NCBI GenBank assembly: GCA_964537195.1
Contig: CAZHYZ010000002.1
Location: forward strand, 296 to 64,295
Origin: an uncultured Methanosarcinales archaeon
Lineage (GTDB): Archaea; Nanobdellota; Nanobdellia; Woesearchaeales; GW2011-AR15
Direction: 5' to 3'
DNA: 64,000 nt
Below the pieces are notes generated by a model. The model did not search any database and had not been told where the DNA came from. It saw only the letters and a program-made list of their open reading frames with translations. Both the position numbers and the translations under genes were made by a program. Each line of letters starts with the position of its first letter. Position 1 is the first letter of the stretch. Of this stretch, positions 4,257 to 37,698 are shown in pieces.

Positions 4257-4810
4257 ATTTTTTTACCTGCTTTTTCAGTTATATAAATCCCGTCTTGAAA
4301 TATTCTTTTATCAAAACCTGGTCTTCTTGTTCTCTGTTCGATGTCCGCAGAAACTTGTCCTGCCAAATCCTTATCGGGAGACTCAACCATTATTTCATTT
4401 CCTTTAACTGTTACTTTCGCGCCTTGCCTTATTTCAACCTTTCTAGGAACCTTTTCCCCAAGGAAATTCTTTATTATTAAAACATTATTGGACACACTAA
4501 CATTCATTGGAAAATGTCCTGAACAAATTTTTAGCTTATACATATATGGTTCTTGTACACCTTTTATTCCTTTTAACAAATGTGCTTTATAAGTATTAAT
4601 CATTGCTTTCTCTCTTTTTGTTTGTCTGGAAGTTTCTAAAATAATTTCATCGGCCTTAACATTTATAATAACGATGGGGCTGTCTAGTTTTTTCTTTACA
4701 CTTCCCCCAAGTCCTTCAATTACTACCAACTCTCCCTCTTTTCTGATTGTAATTCCGTCCGGGATTTCTATCTTTTCTTGAATCTTTTCGTTTGCCATTT
4801 TAATAAACAT
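4253..4810 (-). CDS. rpl6: 50S ribosomal protein uL6 (likely start 4798)
   Basis: HFPMNVSV, NFLGEKVPR, DKRIFQDGIYIT. Confidence 0.97.
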   Translation of the reverse strand: MFIKMANEKIQEKIEIPDGITIRKEGELVVIEGLGGSVKKKLDSPIVIINVKADEIILETSRQTKREKAMINTYKAHLLKGIKGVQEPYMYKLKICSGHFPMNVSVSNNVLIIKNFLGEKVPRKVEIRQGAKVTVKGNEIMVESPDKDLAGQVSADIEQRTRRPGFDKRIFQDGIYITEKAGKKI

Positions 4811-26942: not shown

Positions 26943-27389
26943 ATGAAATGTCCTTATTGTGAAAGTGAGAAGACTCGGGTTGTAGACAAAAGAGAAACAG
27001 ATAATGGTTGTGTTACTAGAAGAAGAAGAGAGTGTCTTGTCTGTGAAAAAAGATTCACAACTTATGAAAGAGTTGAAACAATTCCTTTGTTTGTGGTGAA
27101 AAAAGATGGTGCTAGAGAGGAATTTGAAAAAACTAAGATAGAAAGAGGCATTCTCAAGGCCTGTGAAAAAAGGCCTGTGAGTGCAGAAGAAATACAAAAT
27201 ATTGTAAATGAAGTAGAATCACATCTTATAAATAGAGACTCCCCTGAAATCCCCACCCACATTATTGGCAGAATGGTGATGCATAGATTAAAGAAATTGG
27301 ACAAAGTTGCGTATATTAGGTTTGCCTCAGTATATAAGGATTTCAAGGATCCTGAAGAATTTGAGGAGGAACTTGATAAATTAAAATAA
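26943..27389 (+). CDS. nrdR: Transcriptional repressor NrdR
   Basis: MKCPYC...VVDKR...RRRRECLVCEKRFTTYE Zn ribbon, ATP cone, VAYIRFASVY. Confidence 0.96.
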   Translation: MKCPYCESEKTRVVDKRETDNGCVTRRRRECLVCEKRFTTYERVETIPLFVVKKDGAREEFEKTKIERGILKACEKRPVSAEEIQNIVNEVESHLINRDSPEIPTHIIGRMVMHRLKKLDKVAYIRFASVYKDFKDPEEFEEELDKLK

Positions 27390-27418
27390 GCTGATTCTTT
27401 AGTTAATTTTATAAAATA

Positions 27419-27432
27419 TTAACAATTGTTAA
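27419..27432. promoter_or_regulatory. Perfect 14-bp palindrome, candidate operator of the suf operon
   Basis: TTAACAATTGTTAA directly downstream of TATA-like TTTTATAAA (27407-27415) and abutting the regulator start. Confidence 0.55.
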
Positions 27433-27795
27433 GTGACTATGAAGACCCCTCAAGAAATACAAGTTTGGCATATTCTTCCTGCATTAAGAAAACACATTGC
27501 ACTTGGACTGAAAGAAAAAAAACTGAAACAAAAAGATATAGCTTCCCTGCTCGGGCTAACCGAGTCTGCTATCAGTCAATATCTTAAAAAAAAGCGAGGA
27601 AATGAAATAATTTTTCCAAATGAAATAAAGAAAGAGATATCTTTGTCTGTGGAAAAGATTTCAGAAAACAAAACAACTGTTCACAAAGAAATACAAAAAC
27701 TAATTAGAAAAATGGATCGCTCTGGGTTTTTGTGCAATATTTGTCACTGTTATCTGGGAACAGATATTTCTTGTGATGTATGTCATGAAAGGTGA
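27433..27795 (+). CDS. XRE-type HTH transcriptional regulator with a C-terminal Cys/His cluster
   Basis: QKDIASLLGLTESAISQYL HTH; CNICHC...CDVCH tail; first gene of the suf operon. Confidence 0.8.
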   Translation: MTMKTPQEIQVWHILPALRKHIALGLKEKKLKQKDIASLLGLTESAISQYLKKKRGNEIIFPNEIKKEISLSVEKISENKTTVHKEIQKLIRKMDRSGFLCNICHCYLGTDISCDVCHER

Positions 27796-27800
27796 GAGAT

Positions 27801-28544
27801 ATGCTTGAAATAGAAGATTTACATATTAATGTTGATGGGAAAGAAATTATTAAAGGATTAGACTTAAAAATTAAAAAAGGAGAAATCCATGCTCTAATGG
27901 GGCCAAATGGTTCTGGAAAAAGTACTTTGGCTTTTGGTCTTATGGGACACCCGAAATATGAAATAACTAAAGGTAATGTTGTGGTTGATAAAACCAATGT
28001 GCTCGATTTAGATGTGAGCCAAAGAGCAAAAGCAGGGTTGTTTTTGTCTTTCCAATATCCAAGTGAGATATCTGGTGTTTCTCTGGCAAACTTTCTAAGA
28101 ACTGCCTACAATCAAGTCAAAAGTAAGGATAAAGATGACAAGATTGGTGTTATGGATTTTATGAAACTGTTGTATGAGAAAATGGATCTTCTCAAGATGG
28201 ACAAAGAATTTGCCAAAAGACATGTAAATGTAGGTTTTTCGGGAGGAGAAAAGAAAAGAACAGAAATTTTACAAATGGCTGTTCTAGAACCCAAATTTGC
28301 AATCTTAGATGAAACTGATTCTGGATTAGACATTGATGCACTAAAAGTTGTTGCAGATGGTGTACAAAAATTGGTTGGACCAACGATGGGAGTACTTATT
28401 ATTACCCATTATCAAAGAATTCTTCACCACATAAAACCTGACAAAGTACACGTTCTTGTTGATGGTAAAATTGTAAAAACCGGCGGACGAAAACTTGCAG
28501 AAGAAATTGAAGAAAGAGGGTATGAAGATTTGCAAAAAAGGTGA
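27801..28544 (+). CDS. sufC: Fe-S cluster assembly ATPase SufC (start set at 27801 after AGGTGA)
   Basis: MGPNGSGKST, FLSFQYPSEI, GFSGGEKKR, ILDETDSGLDID. Confidence 0.97.
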   Translation: MLEIEDLHINVDGKEIIKGLDLKIKKGEIHALMGPNGSGKSTLAFGLMGHPKYEITKGNVVVDKTNVLDLDVSQRAKAGLFLSFQYPSEISGVSLANFLRTAYNQVKSKDKDDKIGVMDFMKLLYEKMDLLKMDKEFAKRHVNVGFSGGEKKRTEILQMAVLEPKFAILDETDSGLDIDALKVVADGVQKLVGPTMGVLIITHYQRILHHIKPDKVHVLVDGKIVKTGGRKLAEEIEERGYEDLQKR

Positions 28545-28550
28545 ATTGGT

Positions 28551-29966
28551 GTGAGTTCAAAAGAAAGTGAAGAGATAAAAAAATTTCTTGGAAATGAATA
28601 TAAGTATGGTTTTAGAGATCCTGAAAAATTTTCTTTCAAGACTAAGAAAGGACTTAATGAAAAAATAGTCAGACAAATTTCAGAAATAAAAAAGGAACCT
28701 AAGTGGATGACTGAGATGAGACTAAAAGGATATAAACATTTCAAAGAAAGGCCACTTCCTTTGTGGGGTGCAGATCTCAGACAAATTGATTTTCAAGACA
28801 TCTATTATTATGGAAAACCAGAAGGTGAACAAAGTAGAAGCTGGGATGATGTTCCCGAATATATAAAAAAGACATTTGATAGACTTGGAATTCCTGAGGC
28901 CGAAAAAAAATTTCTTTCGGGTGTGGGTGCGCAATATGAATCAGAAGTTGTATATCACAATCTGAAAAAAGATCTTGAAAAGAAAGGTGTTATCTTCTTA
29001 GATATGGACGGTGGATTAAGAGAACATCCCAAACTTGTGAAAAGGTGGTTTGGAAAAATCATACCCTATAATGATAATAAACTGGCAGCATTAAATACTG
29101 CTGTCTGGTCCGGAGGTTCTTTTATTTATGTTCCTCCCGGAGTTAAAGTGGATTTGCCTTTGCAGGCATATTTTAGGATAAATGCAAAAAACATGGGGCA
29201 ATTTGAAAGAACCTTAATTATTGCAGACAAAGGAGCACATGTTCATTATGTAGAGGGCTGTACTGCCCCCGTATATGCTTCTGATTCTCTACATAGTGCA
29301 GTAGTGGAACTTATTGCTATGGAAGGCTCTACCATAAGATATACAACAATCCAGAATTGGTCCAATAATGTGTTTAATCTAGTAACTAAGAGGGCAATTG
29401 CTCATAAAAATTCTCGCGTTGAATGGATTGACGGAAATCTTGGAAGCAAAATAACAATGAAATATCCTGCTATTATTTTATTAGAAGAGGGTGCACACGG
29501 AGAGGTAATTTCTGTTGCATTTGCAGGAAAAGACCAACATCAAGATGCTGGTGCAAAAATAATTCACTTGGCACCAAAGACAACTTCACAAATAATATCT
29601 AAATCAATATCTAAGGATGGGGGAAGGGCATCCTATAGAGGCTTGTTGAAAGTAGAAAAGGGTTGTAAAGATGTTAAGTCAAGTGTTGTTTGTGATGCCT
29701 TGATCCTAGATGAAAAGTCTGCTTCTGATACTTTCCCTTATATGGAAATAAAGGAAAAAGATGTTTCTATAGGTCATGAGGCGTCTGTTGGAAGGGTTTC
29801 TGAAGAACAGTTATTTTATCTTATGTCTAGGGGGTTTGATGAAGAACAGGCGCTAGGAATGATTGTAAGGGGATTCATGGATGAATTTGTTAGAGAACTT
29901 CCTATGGAATATGCCATAGAACTAAATCGGCTCATTGAATTGAATATGGAGGGCTCTGTAGGATAA
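28551..29966 (+). CDS. sufB: Fe-S cluster assembly protein SufB
   Basis: [42 protein letters not shown]. Confidence 0.97.
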
Positions 29967-29968
29967 AC

Positions 29969-31180
29969 ATGACAAGTATATATGATAAATCTATATTAAA
30001 AAAGATTAAACAAAGTACTGTTGAACCTAAAACAATGTATGAAAAAAGGCAACTTGGCTTTCAATTATTTAAAAAATTGCCCCTTCCTTCTCAAAAATCA
30101 GAGGGCTGGAAATACACGGACATAAAAGACCTCAATTTAAATGAATTTCTGCCAGGAAAACAAAAAGTAGAATTTATTGGGCAAAACAAGGAATTAGAAA
30201 AGAAAGGTGTTATTTTTACAGACATAAGAACCGCATTAGAAAAACATTTTGATATTATTAAAGAATGTCTGCCAATGTCTCTGGTATCATACAAAGAAGA
30301 TAAATTCACTGCTATGCACGCAGCTTTTTGGAACGAAGGTGTTTTTATTTATTTGCCTAAAAACATAAAATTGGAGTTGCCTTTGAGAAACAGATTTTAT
30401 ATTAGCAGAAAAGGTGGTTTTTTTAATCATGCTTTAATTATCTTAGAACAAAACTCTTCGTTGAAATATATTGAAGAACACGTTTCTGAAGAAGGAGATT
30501 ATGTCGCATTAAGAAGCGATGTTGTTGAGATTTATGCTAAAGAAAATTCTTCTCTGGATTTTCACAACCTACAAAATTGGGTGGACAATGTTATTAACTT
30601 TTCAAACTGGTCAGCAAATTTAGAAAGAAACAGCAAAGTCAATTGGTTTTTTGGACAATTTGGAGGAAAGATAAGTAGAGTAAAAATTGACTCTTTTTTC
30701 AATGGGCCAGGATCTGAATCACATAATTGTGGGGTTTTTTATGGGAACAAAAACCAGCATTTTGATATTACTACAAATGCGCATCACATTGAACCACATA
30801 CTACCGGAAACATAATTGTTAAAGGTGTTCTAGACAACCATTCTACTTCTGTGTATAGAGGGAAAATAAAAATAGATAAAACTGCCCAAGACACAAACTC
30901 TTATTTATCTGATCACTCATTAATTTTAAGTGAACATGCTGTCTCAAATTCTGTACCTACTTTAGAGATTGATGCTAATGAAGTATCAGCTAGTCATAGT
31001 GCTACACTTGGTAGACCAGATGAAGAAGAAATATTCTATCTAATGTCTCGCGGTTTATCTAGAAAAGAAGCAGAAAAACTTATAATTTTGGGGTTCTTTA
31101 GTGAGATAACTGAGAAAATAGAGATTGATGATTTAAGACTGGGATTTGAAAAAAGTCTTCAAAAAAAGTATTTTAGATAA
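29969..31180 (+). CDS. sufD: Fe-S cluster assembly protein SufD
   Basis: EGWKYTD, GKIKIDKTAQDT, PTLEIDANEVSASHSATLG, YLMSRG. Confidence 0.94.
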   Translation: MTSIYDKSILKKIKQSTVEPKTMYEKRQLGFQLFKKLPLPSQKSEGWKYTDIKDLNLNEFLPGKQKVEFIGQNKELEKKGVIFTDIRTALEKHFDIIKECLPMSLVSYKEDKFTAMHAAFWNEGVFIYLPKNIKLELPLRNRFYISRKGGFFNHALIILEQNSSLKYIEEHVSEEGDYVALRSDVVEIYAKENSSLDFHNLQNWVDNVINFSNWSANLERNSKVNWFFGQFGGKISRVKIDSFFNGPGSESHNCGVFYGNKNQHFDITTNAHHIEPHTTGNIIVKGVLDNHSTSVYRGKIKIDKTAQDTNSYLSDHSLILSEHAVSNSVPTLEIDANEVSASHSATLGRPDEEEIFYLMSRGLSRKEAEKLIILGFFSEITEKIEIDDLRLGFEKSLQKKYFR

Positions 31181-31181
31181 A

Positions 31182-32411
31182 ATGTATGATATAAAAAAAA
31201 TTAGGAAAGATTTTCCAATACTTGGTAGGAAAATCAGAAGTAAAAAACTGATATATCTAGATAACGCAGCAACAACACAAAAACCAAAACAAGTTCTTGA
31301 AAGCATAAAAGAGTACTATGAAAAAAATAATGCCAACATACATAGAGGAGTGCATTTGTTATCTGAAGAAGCTACTGAAATGTATAATGAAGCACATGGA
31401 AAGGTTGGATTATTTGTCAATTCTGAGTTTCCTAATGAAGAGATTATTTTTTTAAGAAACGCAACAGAAGGAATAAATCTCGTAATGTATGGTTGGGCTT
31501 TTCAAAATTTAAAAAGTGGAGACGAAGTCGTTTCGACCATTATGGAACACCACAGTAATTTTGTTCCATGGCAACAATTAGAGAAAAGAGGAATAAATGT
31601 CAAATACGTTGATATAAATGATGGGGGCGTCGTTGATATTGAAGACCTAAAAAGAAAAATAACTGAAAAAACAAAACTTGTTAGTTGTGTCCATGTCTCA
31701 AATGTTCTTGGAACCATAAATCCTGTTGGAGAAATAGCAAAAATTGCACACGATGCAGGAGCACTTTTTCTTTTAGATGCTGCCCAATCCGTTCCTCACA
31801 TGTGTGTTGATGTGAGAAAAATTGATTGTGATTTCATGGTGTTTTCTGGTCACAAAATGTTGGCTCCGACTGGAATTGGGGCATTATATGGAAAAAAGCA
31901 TCTCCTTGAAAAAATGTCTCCTTTTCTTTTTGGTGGAGATATGATAAAAGAAGTTACAACTAAAAAAAGTACGTGGAATGACTTGCCATGGAAATTTGAA
32001 GCAGGAACCCCAAATATTTCGGGAGGAATTGCCTTTGGTGCTGCAGTTGATTACTTAAACGGGCTTGGTATGGAAAATGTGGAAAAACATGTTTCTTCTC
32101 TCACAGAATATGCGGTAAACATGTTAAATGAGATAGAGGGAATAAAAATATATGGGCCAACCAATCCAGAATTAAGAAAAGGAGTTATTAGTTTTGATGT
32201 TCGAGGCATTCATCCACATGATGTTGCAAGTATCTTAGATACAGAGTATGGTGTTGCTGTTCGAAGTGGTTATCACTGTGCACAACCCCTGCATGAAAGG
32301 TTGAAAGCAAAAACAAGTACTCGAGCCAGCTTCTATATTTACAATACAAAAGAAGAAATTGATGTTTTAATAAAAGGACTAAAAAAAGTGAAGGGAGTTT
32401 TTAGAAAATGA
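31182..32411 (+). CDS. sufS: Cysteine desulfurase SufS (start set at 31182)
   Basis: YLDNAATTQKP, EHHSN, LDAAQSVPH, SGHKM, RSGYHCAQP. Confidence 0.97.
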   Translation: MYDIKKIRKDFPILGRKIRSKKLIYLDNAATTQKPKQVLESIKEYYEKNNANIHRGVHLLSEEATEMYNEAHGKVGLFVNSEFPNEEIIFLRNATEGINLVMYGWAFQNLKSGDEVVSTIMEHHSNFVPWQQLEKRGINVKYVDINDGGVVDIEDLKRKITEKTKLVSCVHVSNVLGTINPVGEIAKIAHDAGALFLLDAAQSVPHMCVDVRKIDCDFMVFSGHKMLAPTGIGALYGKKHLLEKMSPFLFGGDMIKEVTTKKSTWNDLPWKFEAGTPNISGGIAFGAAVDYLNGLGMENVEKHVSSLTEYAVNMLNEIEGIKIYGPTNPELRKGVISFDVRGIHPHDVASILDTEYGVAVRSGYHCAQPLHERLKAKTSTRASFYIYNTKEEIDVLIKGLKKVKGVFRK

Positions 32412-32803
32412 GTATTGATATGTACCAAGAAAACATTTTGGATCATTATGAAAATCCAAGGAATTTTGGACATTTAAAGAAGTATGATATAAATATAGGT
32501 GATTCTAATCCTGTTTGTGGAGACAAATTTAATTTTGAGATGAATTTTGAAAAAAATAAAATAAAAGATGTGAAGTTCTCGGGGCATGGTTGTGCTATTT
32601 CTACTTCGTCTGCTTCCATGTTAAGTGAAAAAATTAAAGGTCTTCCTTTGAAAGAAATAAAGAAGATGGAGAAGAAAGACATAATAGACATGATGGGTAT
32701 CCCTATAAGTCATGTCAGAATAAAATGTGCGATGCTTCCTTTGAAAATTATAAAATTAGGCATTTATGATTACTTAAACAAAAAAACTGAAAAACAGAGT
32801 TAG
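32408..32803 (+). CDS. sufU: SUF system sulfur-transfer protein SufU
   Basis: ILDHYENPRN, NPVCGD, GCAISTSSAS, RIKCAML. Confidence 0.95.
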   Translation: MSIDMYQENILDHYENPRNFGHLKKYDINIGDSNPVCGDKFNFEMNFEKNKIKDVKFSGHGCAISTSSASMLSEKIKGLPLKEIKKMEKKDIIDMMGIPISHVRIKCAMLPLKIIKLGIYDYLNKKTEKQS

Positions 32804-36943: not shown

Positions 36944-37633
36944 ATGCACAAATCAAAAGTAATTAAACTAATTAAAGAAACTCACGATACTTGGACAATA
37001 CAGTTTGAAAGGCCAGAAAATTTTGATTATAAGCCCGGACAGTATTGTATCTTTGAGAAAAAAATGGGTGACGAATTAATTAGGAGATCTTATTCGTTGT
37101 CTTCTTCTCCAACTGAGGAATTCCTTCAGATAACTGTTAAACACATACCCAATGGAAAAATGTCTACCTACCTTACTCAATGCTCTTCTGGAGAGGTGTT
37201 GAAATACAATGGCCCTATTGGAAAATTTGTGTTTGATGAAACTTATAATAATGTGGTTTTTATTGCGGGAGGCTCTGGCATAAGTCCTTTTAGAAGCATG
37301 CTTAAGTACGTTTTAGATAAAAAATTACAAACAAAAGTAACTGTGATTTATGGTTCAAGATCTCCAAAAGACATTATTTTAAAAGAGGAGTTAGAAGAAC
37401 ATAACAAAAGAGAGAATGTTAACCTATATTTGACTGTGGATTATCCGGACGAAGAATGGAAGTTTCATTCTGGATTTATTGATATAGATTTCATAAAAGA
37501 AGCAACAAAGAATGACTTGTTTGATAAGGATTATTTTCTAATAGGGCCACCACCCATGGTAACTAATGTAAAAAACGGTCTCATGAAAGCAAATGTCCCA
37601 GAACCCCAGATTCATGTTGATGCATGGGGTTAG
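36944..37633 (+). CDS. FAD/NAD(P)-binding oxidoreductase (ferredoxin-NADP reductase-like, no Fe-S domain)
   Basis: YKPGQY, RRSYSLSS, GKMSTYL, FIAGGSGISPF, GPPPMV; GAGGTG Shine-Dalgarno. Confidence 0.9.
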   Translation: MHKSKVIKLIKETHDTWTIQFERPENFDYKPGQYCIFEKKMGDELIRRSYSLSSSPTEEFLQITVKHIPNGKMSTYLTQCSSGEVLKYNGPIGKFVFDETYNNVVFIAGGSGISPFRSMLKYVLDKKLQTKVTVIYGSRSPKDIILKEELEEHNKRENVNLYLTVDYPDEEWKFHSGFIDIDFIKEATKNDLFDKDYFLIGPPPMVTNVKNGLMKANVPEPQIHVDAWG

Positions 37634-37698
37634 GCATTATAATGCCCTTATAATGGTGTTATAATGCATTATATAATGCGTTATAATGCATTATAATT
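37633..37698. repeat. Helically phased TTATAATG repeat array with embedded palindromes
   Basis: Units at 37637, 37648, 37659, 37671 (variant), 37681 and 37691 (variant); palindromes GGCATTATAATGCC (37633-37646) and GCATTATATAATGC (37666-37679). Confidence 0.85.

Follow-up and report, generated by a model that had tools for sequence, protein, structure and literature searches.

A cysteine-tailed helix-turn-helix protein as predicted autorepressor of iron-sulfur cluster assembly in DPANN archaea

Regulation of iron-sulfur (Fe-S) cluster biogenesis in archaea is essentially a gap: a 2026 review names IscR, SufR, NsrR, SoxR, RirA and FNR only, and discusses the archaeal SMS, MIS and SUF systems with no regulator named for them (PMC13066941). 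Our own literature searches for archaeal regulators of this process gave bacterial ones only. A suf operon within 64,000 nucleotides (nt) of a DPANN archaeal contig (CAZHYZ010000002.1, positions 296 to 64,295 of the forward strand, assembly GCA_964537195.1; this whole stretch is hereafter called the window) raises the question of whether such archaea possess a dedicated regulator. The first gene of the operon encodes a 118-aa protein (hereafter the regulator) with a helix-turn-helix (HTH) and a cysteine-rich tail, and a perfect 14-bp palindrome, TTAACAATTGTTAA, lies in its promoter. An initial annotation, made from the letters of the window, had proposed an undescribed autorepressor that senses an Fe-S cluster or metal. 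From the analysis reported here, we consider it rather probable that the protein is an autoregulated repressor of the regulator-sufCBDSU operon with an Fe-S cluster as its signal, and that it belongs to a large DPANN-wide family of regulators of Fe-S biogenesis.

Genomic linkage and the promoter palindrome

We examined 80 regulator loci from the genomes of different species by tblastn with the Suf proteins of the window and an IscS/IscU pair. Fe-S assembly genes, either SufCBDS(U) or of the IscS/IscU type, were located within 4 kb of the regulator gene in 76 of these loci: directly downstream on the same strand in 55 (sufCBDS, sufBDSU or IscS-IscU) and upstream or divergent in 21, the other four loci having no Fe-S genes or reaching contig ends. 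Metagenome contigs with relatives of 36-43% identity independently agree on this linkage. The regulator is followed by a cysteine desulfurase and NifU_N on the contigs of P0007 and P0006, and by a small open reading frame (ORF) and a cysteine desulfurase on that of P0011; it is divergent from sufB on the P0010 contig and preceded by DUF1858 on the P0005 contig. The initial annotation had staked its proposal on orthologues that stay linked to suf and keep their cysteines, and both hold, the four-ligand motif described below being retained.

The palindrome as such is unremarkable. The window contains eight perfect 14-bp palindromes where first-order Markov simulations yield 7.9 on average, and matches to TTAACAATTGTTAA with up to two mismatches are as frequent as expected, with no enrichment; four of the eight are overlapping palindromes on TATAATGCATTATA / GGCATTATAATGCC at positions 37633-37695. 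We thus dropped the argument from the palindrome alone, and the significance of the operator rests instead on position and conservation. The same motif occurs past the TATA box upstream of the regulators of distant relatives. Within 150 nt 5' of the regulator gene, a perfect TTAAC-N4-GTTAA was found in 36 of 85 loci, and one with at most one mismatch in 45; the perfect upstream sites nearly always abut TTTATAAATAA. Across 603 kb of orthologous loci there were 56 perfect sites where 2.4 are expected by chance, and all 56 occupy promoter positions of Fe-S loci, be it ahead of the regulator, ahead of a small ORF in leading position, ahead of IscS in IscS-IscU-regulator operons (L035, L059, L076, L082 and L089) or, at L005, between the divergent sufB and regulator genes. 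Although left free in the search, the two central bases are A-T in 57 of 57 aligned sites, and the family operator consensus reads TTAACnATnGTTAA. In 31 of the 57, a TTTATAAA-like box stops 3-4 nt short of the site, several promoters carry two abutting (tandem) sites, and a few lineages have the variants TTCAC..GTGAA and TTTAC..GTAAA. The palindrome is, as had been put forward for checking, kept upstream of orthologues, directly past the TATA box.

Over whole genomes, a loose TTAAC-N4-GTTAA and its reversed control have similar counts, and the loose form was discarded; the informative form is the strict motif with central A-T in promoter context. We scored strict sites in 20 high-quality genomes with the regulator and 20 without it, again with the reversed pattern as control. 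Fifteen of the 20 regulator-bearing genomes had such sites (20 sites; reversed control, 3), at least eight of them within ~100 nt of the regulator gene, as against six of the 20 regulator-less genomes with one site each (control, 4; Fisher p=0.01 for 15/20 versus 6/20). None of these last six sites adjoins an Fe-S gene. This co-occurrence across genomes supports the pairing of the regulator with the site, and we regard it as very likely, judging from sequence, that a regulator dimer binds TTAACnATnGTTAA and represses through it.

Beyond Fe-S genes, the operator precedes Fe/Mn superoxide dismutase (SOD) in four genomes of the same family (G036, G304, G246 and G051), and one genome has a site 194 nt ahead of a peroxiredoxin gene. 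Of the 30 SOD genes in an order-wide sample, three are preceded by a perfect site no more than 200 nt away, and a fourth by a site with a single mismatch (chance p ~2e-6). Repeated recruitment of SOD, as read from these promoters, suggests that the physiological signal is oxidative damage of clusters. Operator-SOD loci of relatives, with TTAACnATnGTTAA directly ahead of the gene, are L113, L115, L116 and L118, and L137, L139 and L140.

Family, fold and cysteine tail of the regulator

Scanning with Pfam and NCBIfam brought no model to its cut-off for the regulator, with weak generic HTH matches only. A word-indexed search retrieved 10 relatives, and a profile search of 1.8 billion representatives raised this to 2,197 members (E<=1e-3), with 1,021 of them at E<=1e-10 and a length of 115-130 aa in nearly every case; the profile search of a 90%-identity collection gave 4,969 clusters. 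Database names are limited to 'hypothetical protein', 'helix-turn-helix domain-containing protein' and 'transcriptional regulator', and literature searches found no published description of the family, so the protein appears to be undescribed, as the initial annotation had supposed it might be. Named source organisms are Woesearchaeota, Nanoarchaeota, Aenigmarchaeota, Micrarchaeota and Diapherotrites, and a search for cultured hosts that started from a TTCAC-type member returned DPANN proteins only. Within the phylum of the window (DPANN archaea), the regulator is present in 211 of 301 sampled genomes, 0.5-2 Mb in size and almost always with a single copy.

Close homologues also occur in records of metagenome-assembled genomes titled 'uncultured Methanosarcinales archaeon' (L016, L018, L020, L026 and similar). 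These titles are misleading on taxonomy, because the contigs and site coordinates are identical to those of genomes of the window's DPANN family in GTDB (for example, G388 matches G036, and G391 matches G051).

The (near-)invariant residues of the family are P4, E6, V9, W10, P14, R17, Q31, A35, T41-x2-A44-x-S46-Q47-Y48, K52, R53, C99, C112 and C115. The recognition helix reads T41-E-S-A-I-S-Q-Y-L, of which T41, A44, S46, Q47 and Y48 are kept in at least 90% of members. HTH_3 (PF01381) scores 21.6 bits for the window protein, below the Pfam cut-off of 23, and is matched by 57 of 67 members at E<=1e-3 (best, 9e-8), which makes the regulator probably a distant member of the XRE / Cro-C1 superfamily in its HTH part only. 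AlphaFold2, run on an alignment of the 67 sequences, returned an all-helical model with a predicted local distance difference test (pLDDT) score of 93 and a predicted template modelling (pTM) score of 0.85. In this model, a long N-terminal helix (4-26) is followed by the XRE-like HTH (31-38 and 42-49, the latter for recognition), three more helices (61-75, 81-95 and 97-106) and the predicted C-terminal metal- or cluster-binding motif. A Foldseek search of the PDB with the model gave no significant match (best E=0.75, TM<=0.35; XRE-type HTH proteins appear faintly), so no structural homologue suggests a cofactor, and a search of solved structures by sequence gave generic HTH matches only. The C-terminal 60 residues have no Pfam coverage in any of the 67 members.

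The tail reads C99-N-I-C102-H-C104-YLGTDIS-C112-D-V-C115-H-E-R. It had been described as CNICHC-x6-CDVCH; the cysteine-rich tail stands, and the spacer has seven residues rather than six, giving C-x2-C-x9-C-x2-C. Four of its seven Cys and His residues are family features, the exceptions being C104, H103 and H116. In the family alignment, C99 and C112 never vary, C115 is kept in at least 90%, and position 102 is His in 133 of 156 members and Cys in 17. A third group has Tyr at this position and a Cys four residues on (C-x2-Y-x3-C-x6-8-C-x2-C); because this Cys compensates, four ligands are always retained, in the variants C-x2-H, C-x2-C and C-x2-Y-x3-C. The C-x2-C form, that of the window protein, accompanies sufC-first operons (nine loci and the window), and the C-x2-H form accompanies IscS-like or sufB-first operons. 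C99 and C102 lie in the last modelled helix; the terminal loop carries C112 and C115. The ligand pattern fits two C-x2-C/H Zn knuckles, and the modelled geometry differs from the classical two-hairpin ribbon.

A tandem-duplicated branch of 214-237 aa (P0168 at L163:4001-4681, P0012 and P0163) is without the C-terminal motif and has C-R-I-C in helix 5. Its reading as single-chain dimers in Fe-S loci was rejected, since the one locus checked is flanked by rhodanese-domain genes and has no TTAAC palindrome; these proteins are a diverged branch that lends the proposed regulator no support.

Proposed mechanism, rival explanations and known systems

We propose that a homodimer would bind TTAACnATnGTTAA through its XRE-like HTH, in a phage 434-like layout with a 5-bp half-site on either side of 4 bp rich in A/T. 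Archaeal repressors commonly bind just downstream of the TATA box and the B recognition element (BRE) and block RNA polymerase recruitment. Protein bound at about -20 to -7 would allow TBP/TFB binding and block RNA polymerase recruitment, and because this follows from established archaeal promoter biology for anything seated between TATA box and start, the predicted action is repression. Autoregulation is expected because the dyad operator overlaps the regulator's own core promoter. Indeed, the combination of a conserved dyad operator over the core promoter with a gene that heads or joins an Fe-S operon is that of an operon-head autorepressor, and autorepression of Fe-S assembly appears well supported. 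The C-x2-(C/H)-x9-10-C-x2-C site would receive an Fe-S cluster from the very machinery under its control, and the holo-protein would repress. Loss of the cluster, whether under oxidative stress, for lack of iron or sulfur or because apo-proteins make high demands, would free the protein from DNA and induce Fe-S assembly and, in several relatives, SOD too. The cluster is suggested by the analogy with IscR and SufR and by the ligand set; on these grounds, we hold the chances that it is the signal to be evenly balanced.

Several observations weigh against this proposal. The regulator is missing from ~30% of the 301 phylum genomes sampled, and one regulator clade, downstream of IscS, has no palindrome directly upstream. 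The residues of the recognition helix (SQY, SHY, CQY) show no clean covariation with the half-sites (TTAAC, TTTAC, TTCAC). The genome of the window has two strict sites only, and the one other than the suf promoter, an identical TTAACAATTGTTAA at C39:4246-4259 (L013:1501-1514), adjoins a TATA box and a membrane-protein gene. It is flanked by a leaderless gene for a 187-aa His-rich membrane protein on the minus strand and by ~300 nt poor in ORFs, followed by a gene for a 64-aa membrane protein; neither protein belongs to a Pfam family, and neither Rfam nor aragorn detected an RNA or a tRNA there. The SOD gene of the same genome (C23:5552) has no operator within 200 nt, which limits the SOD link to relatives. 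Finally, the ligand spacing is that of a classic zinc knuckle and AlphaFold2 folds the tail confidently ligand-free, so that the tail could be a structural Zn site.

The same features of the tail suit an explanation that retains repressor and operator and changes the signal. Zn(II) would sit on Cys3(Cys/His), and oxidants would form a disulfide (e.g. C112-C115), expel the metal and release the DNA, making the protein a sensor of oxidative stress, like the zinc-associated anti-sigma (ZAS) factors (RsrA) or Hsp33, rather than of Fe-S supply. Zn sites typically have such paired C-x2-C/H knuckles, the ZAS ligand set is C-H-C-C, the confident model of the tail holds no cluster, and co-regulation of SOD, possibly together with peroxiredoxin in one genome, indicates an oxidative-stress signal. 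A pure redox switch, however, gives no feedback from Fe-S supply, and the targets are universally and nearly exclusively Fe-S assembly genes, SOD being occasional (three of 30 loci) and no target in the genome of the window. Besides, the first ligand pair is C-x2-H in most members and hence incapable of a disulfide. We judge such a Zn-thiolate switch unlikely, though it is the strongest of the rivals. Less probable still, in our view, is a tail that serves only as structural Zn knuckle or dimerisation element, with the signal elsewhere: in a partner (SufS/IscS, IscU or SufBC), in persulfide or in free iron bound in a rubredoxin-like Fe(Cys)4 site. In a variant of this idea, the protein might be a constitutive autoregulator that merely buffers expression. 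Ligand positions shift within the family, which is easier for a simple metal site; the diverged tandem-duplicated branch between rhodanese genes is a link to sulfur trafficking; and one metagenome protein (P0046, 506 aa) has the regulator domain (residues 9-121) apparently fused to a full cysteine desulfurase, suggesting physical contact. As a single cluster representative, that fusion could be a sequencing, assembly or frameshift artefact. That a regulator devoted to Fe-S genes strictly keeps four ligands mirrors instead the cluster-using IscR, SufR and RirA, and Pfam, the model and the 67-member scan reveal no second sensor domain in the 118-aa protein.

Another factor might bind the palindrome, leaving the regulator a passenger, or the palindrome might itself be a promoter or initiator element. 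The site is AT-rich and adjoins the TATA box, and perfect 14-bp palindromes are not rare by chance here. Yet sites co-occur with the regulator gene, and promoter-type sites are absent from the regulator-less genomes sampled; they are specific to Fe-S (and SOD) promoters, the 1.24-Mb genome of the window having two of strict consensus, and their dyad symmetry and 14-bp length suit a dimer of XRE-type HTH. We deem this explanation very improbable, and a cluster-responsive autorepressor acting through TTAACnATnGTTAA remains the reading that we prefer.

How does such a repressor compare with known ones? Rrf2 (PF02082) gave no match for the regulator at E<=0.01 in Pfam or E<=1 in NCBIfam, and neither collection gave a match to SufR-type models, in agreement, at sequence level, with the earlier statement that the pattern is neither IscR/Rrf2- nor SufR-like. 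Rrf2 proteins above cut-off are absent from all 20 genomes of the family scanned (20/20), which leaves no other candidate regulator of that type. IscR, whose [2Fe-2S] cluster ligands are Cys3His, resembles the regulator in several respects: its gene opens the Fe-S assembly operon that it represses in negative feedback, the small homodimer binds a palindrome within its own promoter, and a Cys3His set spans ~16 residues of its C-terminal half. It differs in its winged-helix Rrf2 domain, a fold unrelated to that of the regulator, and in its C-x5-C-x5-C-x2-H spacing as opposed to C-x2-(C/H)-x9-10-C-x2-C, Cys3His composition alone being common. The regulator would act in an archaeal TATA/TFB promoter setting, and cluster and apo-form activity are known for IscR. 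SufR (COG2345, [4Fe-4S]) of cyanobacteria and actinobacteria, such as M. tuberculosis Rv1460 (PMC6034842; bioRxiv 10.64898/2025.12.26.696629), is likewise a dedicated autoregulated repressor at the head of a suf operon, with cysteine ligands in its C-terminal part, and is derepressed on cluster loss or oxidative stress. In contrast to the 118-aa regulator, with its all-helical model and no wing, SufR has ~215-240 aa, a winged HTH and another Cys spacing, and the regulator family also heads IscS/IscU-type (MIS-like) operons.

The DNA-reading module and the operator recall those of Cro and cI repressors of the phage 434 / P22 type and of controller (C) proteins of restriction-modification systems, the operators being 14-bp dyads whose outer half-sites flank an A/T-rich centre that is not contacted. 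HTH_3, C.Esp1396I and the lambda-repressor-like 28tn rank best among the matches by fold and sequence, all of which are weak. Only ~30 residues match, however, and the long N-terminal helix and the 60-residue C-terminal helical/Cys module have no counterpart in those proteins. The archaeal repressors MDR1, LrpA, Phr, TrmB and NrpR share the operator just past TATA/BRE and the presumed block of RNA polymerase recruitment, and they belong to other protein families and answer to other signals; to our knowledge, none of them controls Fe-S assembly.

By its sequence, the regulator-palindrome pair looks like the missing archaeal counterpart of IscR and SufR, with both SUF-type and IscS/IscU-type operons under its predicted control. 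It is also a small, easily expressed candidate with a defined 14-bp operator, present in ~70% of phylum genomes. A wider and more tentative proposition, to which we give slightly less than even weight, is that it founds a third structural class of Fe-S-sensing regulators, with no kinship to Rrf2/IscR or SufR, DPANN-wide and possibly archaea-wide. This class would consist of minimal Cro-like 118-aa dimers with a labile cluster on Cys3(Cys/His), and TTAACnATnGTTAA would couple SUF operons, IscS/IscU-type operons and, in many lineages, SOD to cluster status. Were that so, no regulator of Fe-S biogenesis would have been known in Archaea before it. If the tail does bind a cluster, the regulator would be a third, independently evolved solution of the feedback problem that IscR and SufR solve, and its very small size (an HTH and a ligand tail of 20 residues) would suit work on how cluster occupancy is relayed to DNA binding. 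In uncultured DPANN genomes, the operator may help to mark Fe-S and oxidative-stress regulons during annotation, and the SOD link suggests how mostly fermentative, host-dependent DPANN cells handle oxygen.

Operon layout and further observations

The window has a G+C content of 33%, and its features are listed in Table 1. The 49-nt spacer between nrdR (26943-27389) and the regulator ORF holds both the TATA box and the palindrome, which confirms the initial annotation in placing the palindrome between TATA box and start codon. Orthologues begin MDTPQE or METPQE, and we took ATG 27439 rather than GTG 27433 as the regulator start for this reason. With the TATA centre at the distance given in the table, the mRNA is probably leaderless and the palindrome falls at about -20 to -7. 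That an HTH protein opens the suf operon and that its stop codon falls within the ribosome-binding region of sufC were likewise correctly noted at the outset; the sufC ATG comes 5 nt past AGGTGA. The listed ORF of sufS begins at TTG 31146, and the alternative ATG 31182, directly past the sufD stop, is the more likely start.

Table 1. Features of the regulator-suf operon in the window
Feature	Position	Strand	Basis or remark
TATA box TTTATAAAA of the regulator-suf promoter	27408-27416	+	Sequence; centre ~27 nt 5' of ATG
Candidate operator, perfect 14-bp palindrome TTAACAATTGTTAA	27419-27432	none	2 nt past the TATA box, 6 nt ahead of ATG
Regulator gene, 118 aa	27439-27795	+	Sequence, alignments, AlphaFold2 model
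HTH, residues 31-49	27529-27585	+	Alignments; model helices 31-38 and 42-49; sub-threshold HTH_3 match, residues 24-53
Ligand motif C99-x2-C102-x9-C112-x2-C115	27733-27786	+	Also contains non-conserved H103, C104 and H116
AGGTGA, Shine-Dalgarno-like, for sufC	27790-27795	+	Sequence; includes regulator stop TGA 27793-27795
sufC, ABC ATPase	27801-28544	+	Profile match
sufB	28551-29966	+	SUFBD_core, 1e-87
sufD	29969-31180	+	SUFBD_core, 6e-78
sufS, cysteine desulfurase	31146-32411	+	Aminotran_5, 9e-148
sufU / NifU_N scaffold or sulfur-transfer protein, last gene of the operon	32408-32803	+	NifU_N, 1e-29

Some relatives differ in what lies next to the regulator. In one of them (L006:109-333), a DUF1858 gene, related to the N-terminal domain of ScdA/RIC, is placed between operator and regulator, and is co-regulated with the latter by virtue of this position. 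In one clade, that place is taken by a small ORF of ~50-56 aa (L071:3757-3924; also L031, L062, L066, L069, L075 and L092), Ser/Gly/Tyr-rich, with a C-terminal TCCGA[KR][KR]FGQxCSDCP[AG] and no Pfam match. It accompanies the C-x2-Y-x3-C variant of the regulator together with IscS-like genes, and might encode a small regulon peptide that binds metal or sulfur. At L028, L070, L090 and L091, all from DPANN genomes, the tblastn matches of sufB are split in two blocks ~1 kb apart, which may reflect the presence of an intein or some other large insert in SufB.

Another palindromic box, TTA(C/T)TAATTAGTAGTAA, lies just 5' of TATA boxes at C39:~4281-4315, C28:5553-5587 and C34:275-310 of the window's genome and recurs at 85-97% identity in related genomes; it is probably the operator of a further regulator. 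The nrdR gene, with Zn-ribbon and ATP-cone, lies ~0.05-3 kb 5' of the regulator-suf operon, in a synteny that is kept in the closest relatives (loci L015, L016, L018-L020, L022 and L026). NrdR is a regulator mainly of bacteria, and its conserved copy in DPANN archaea seems to us worth a look.

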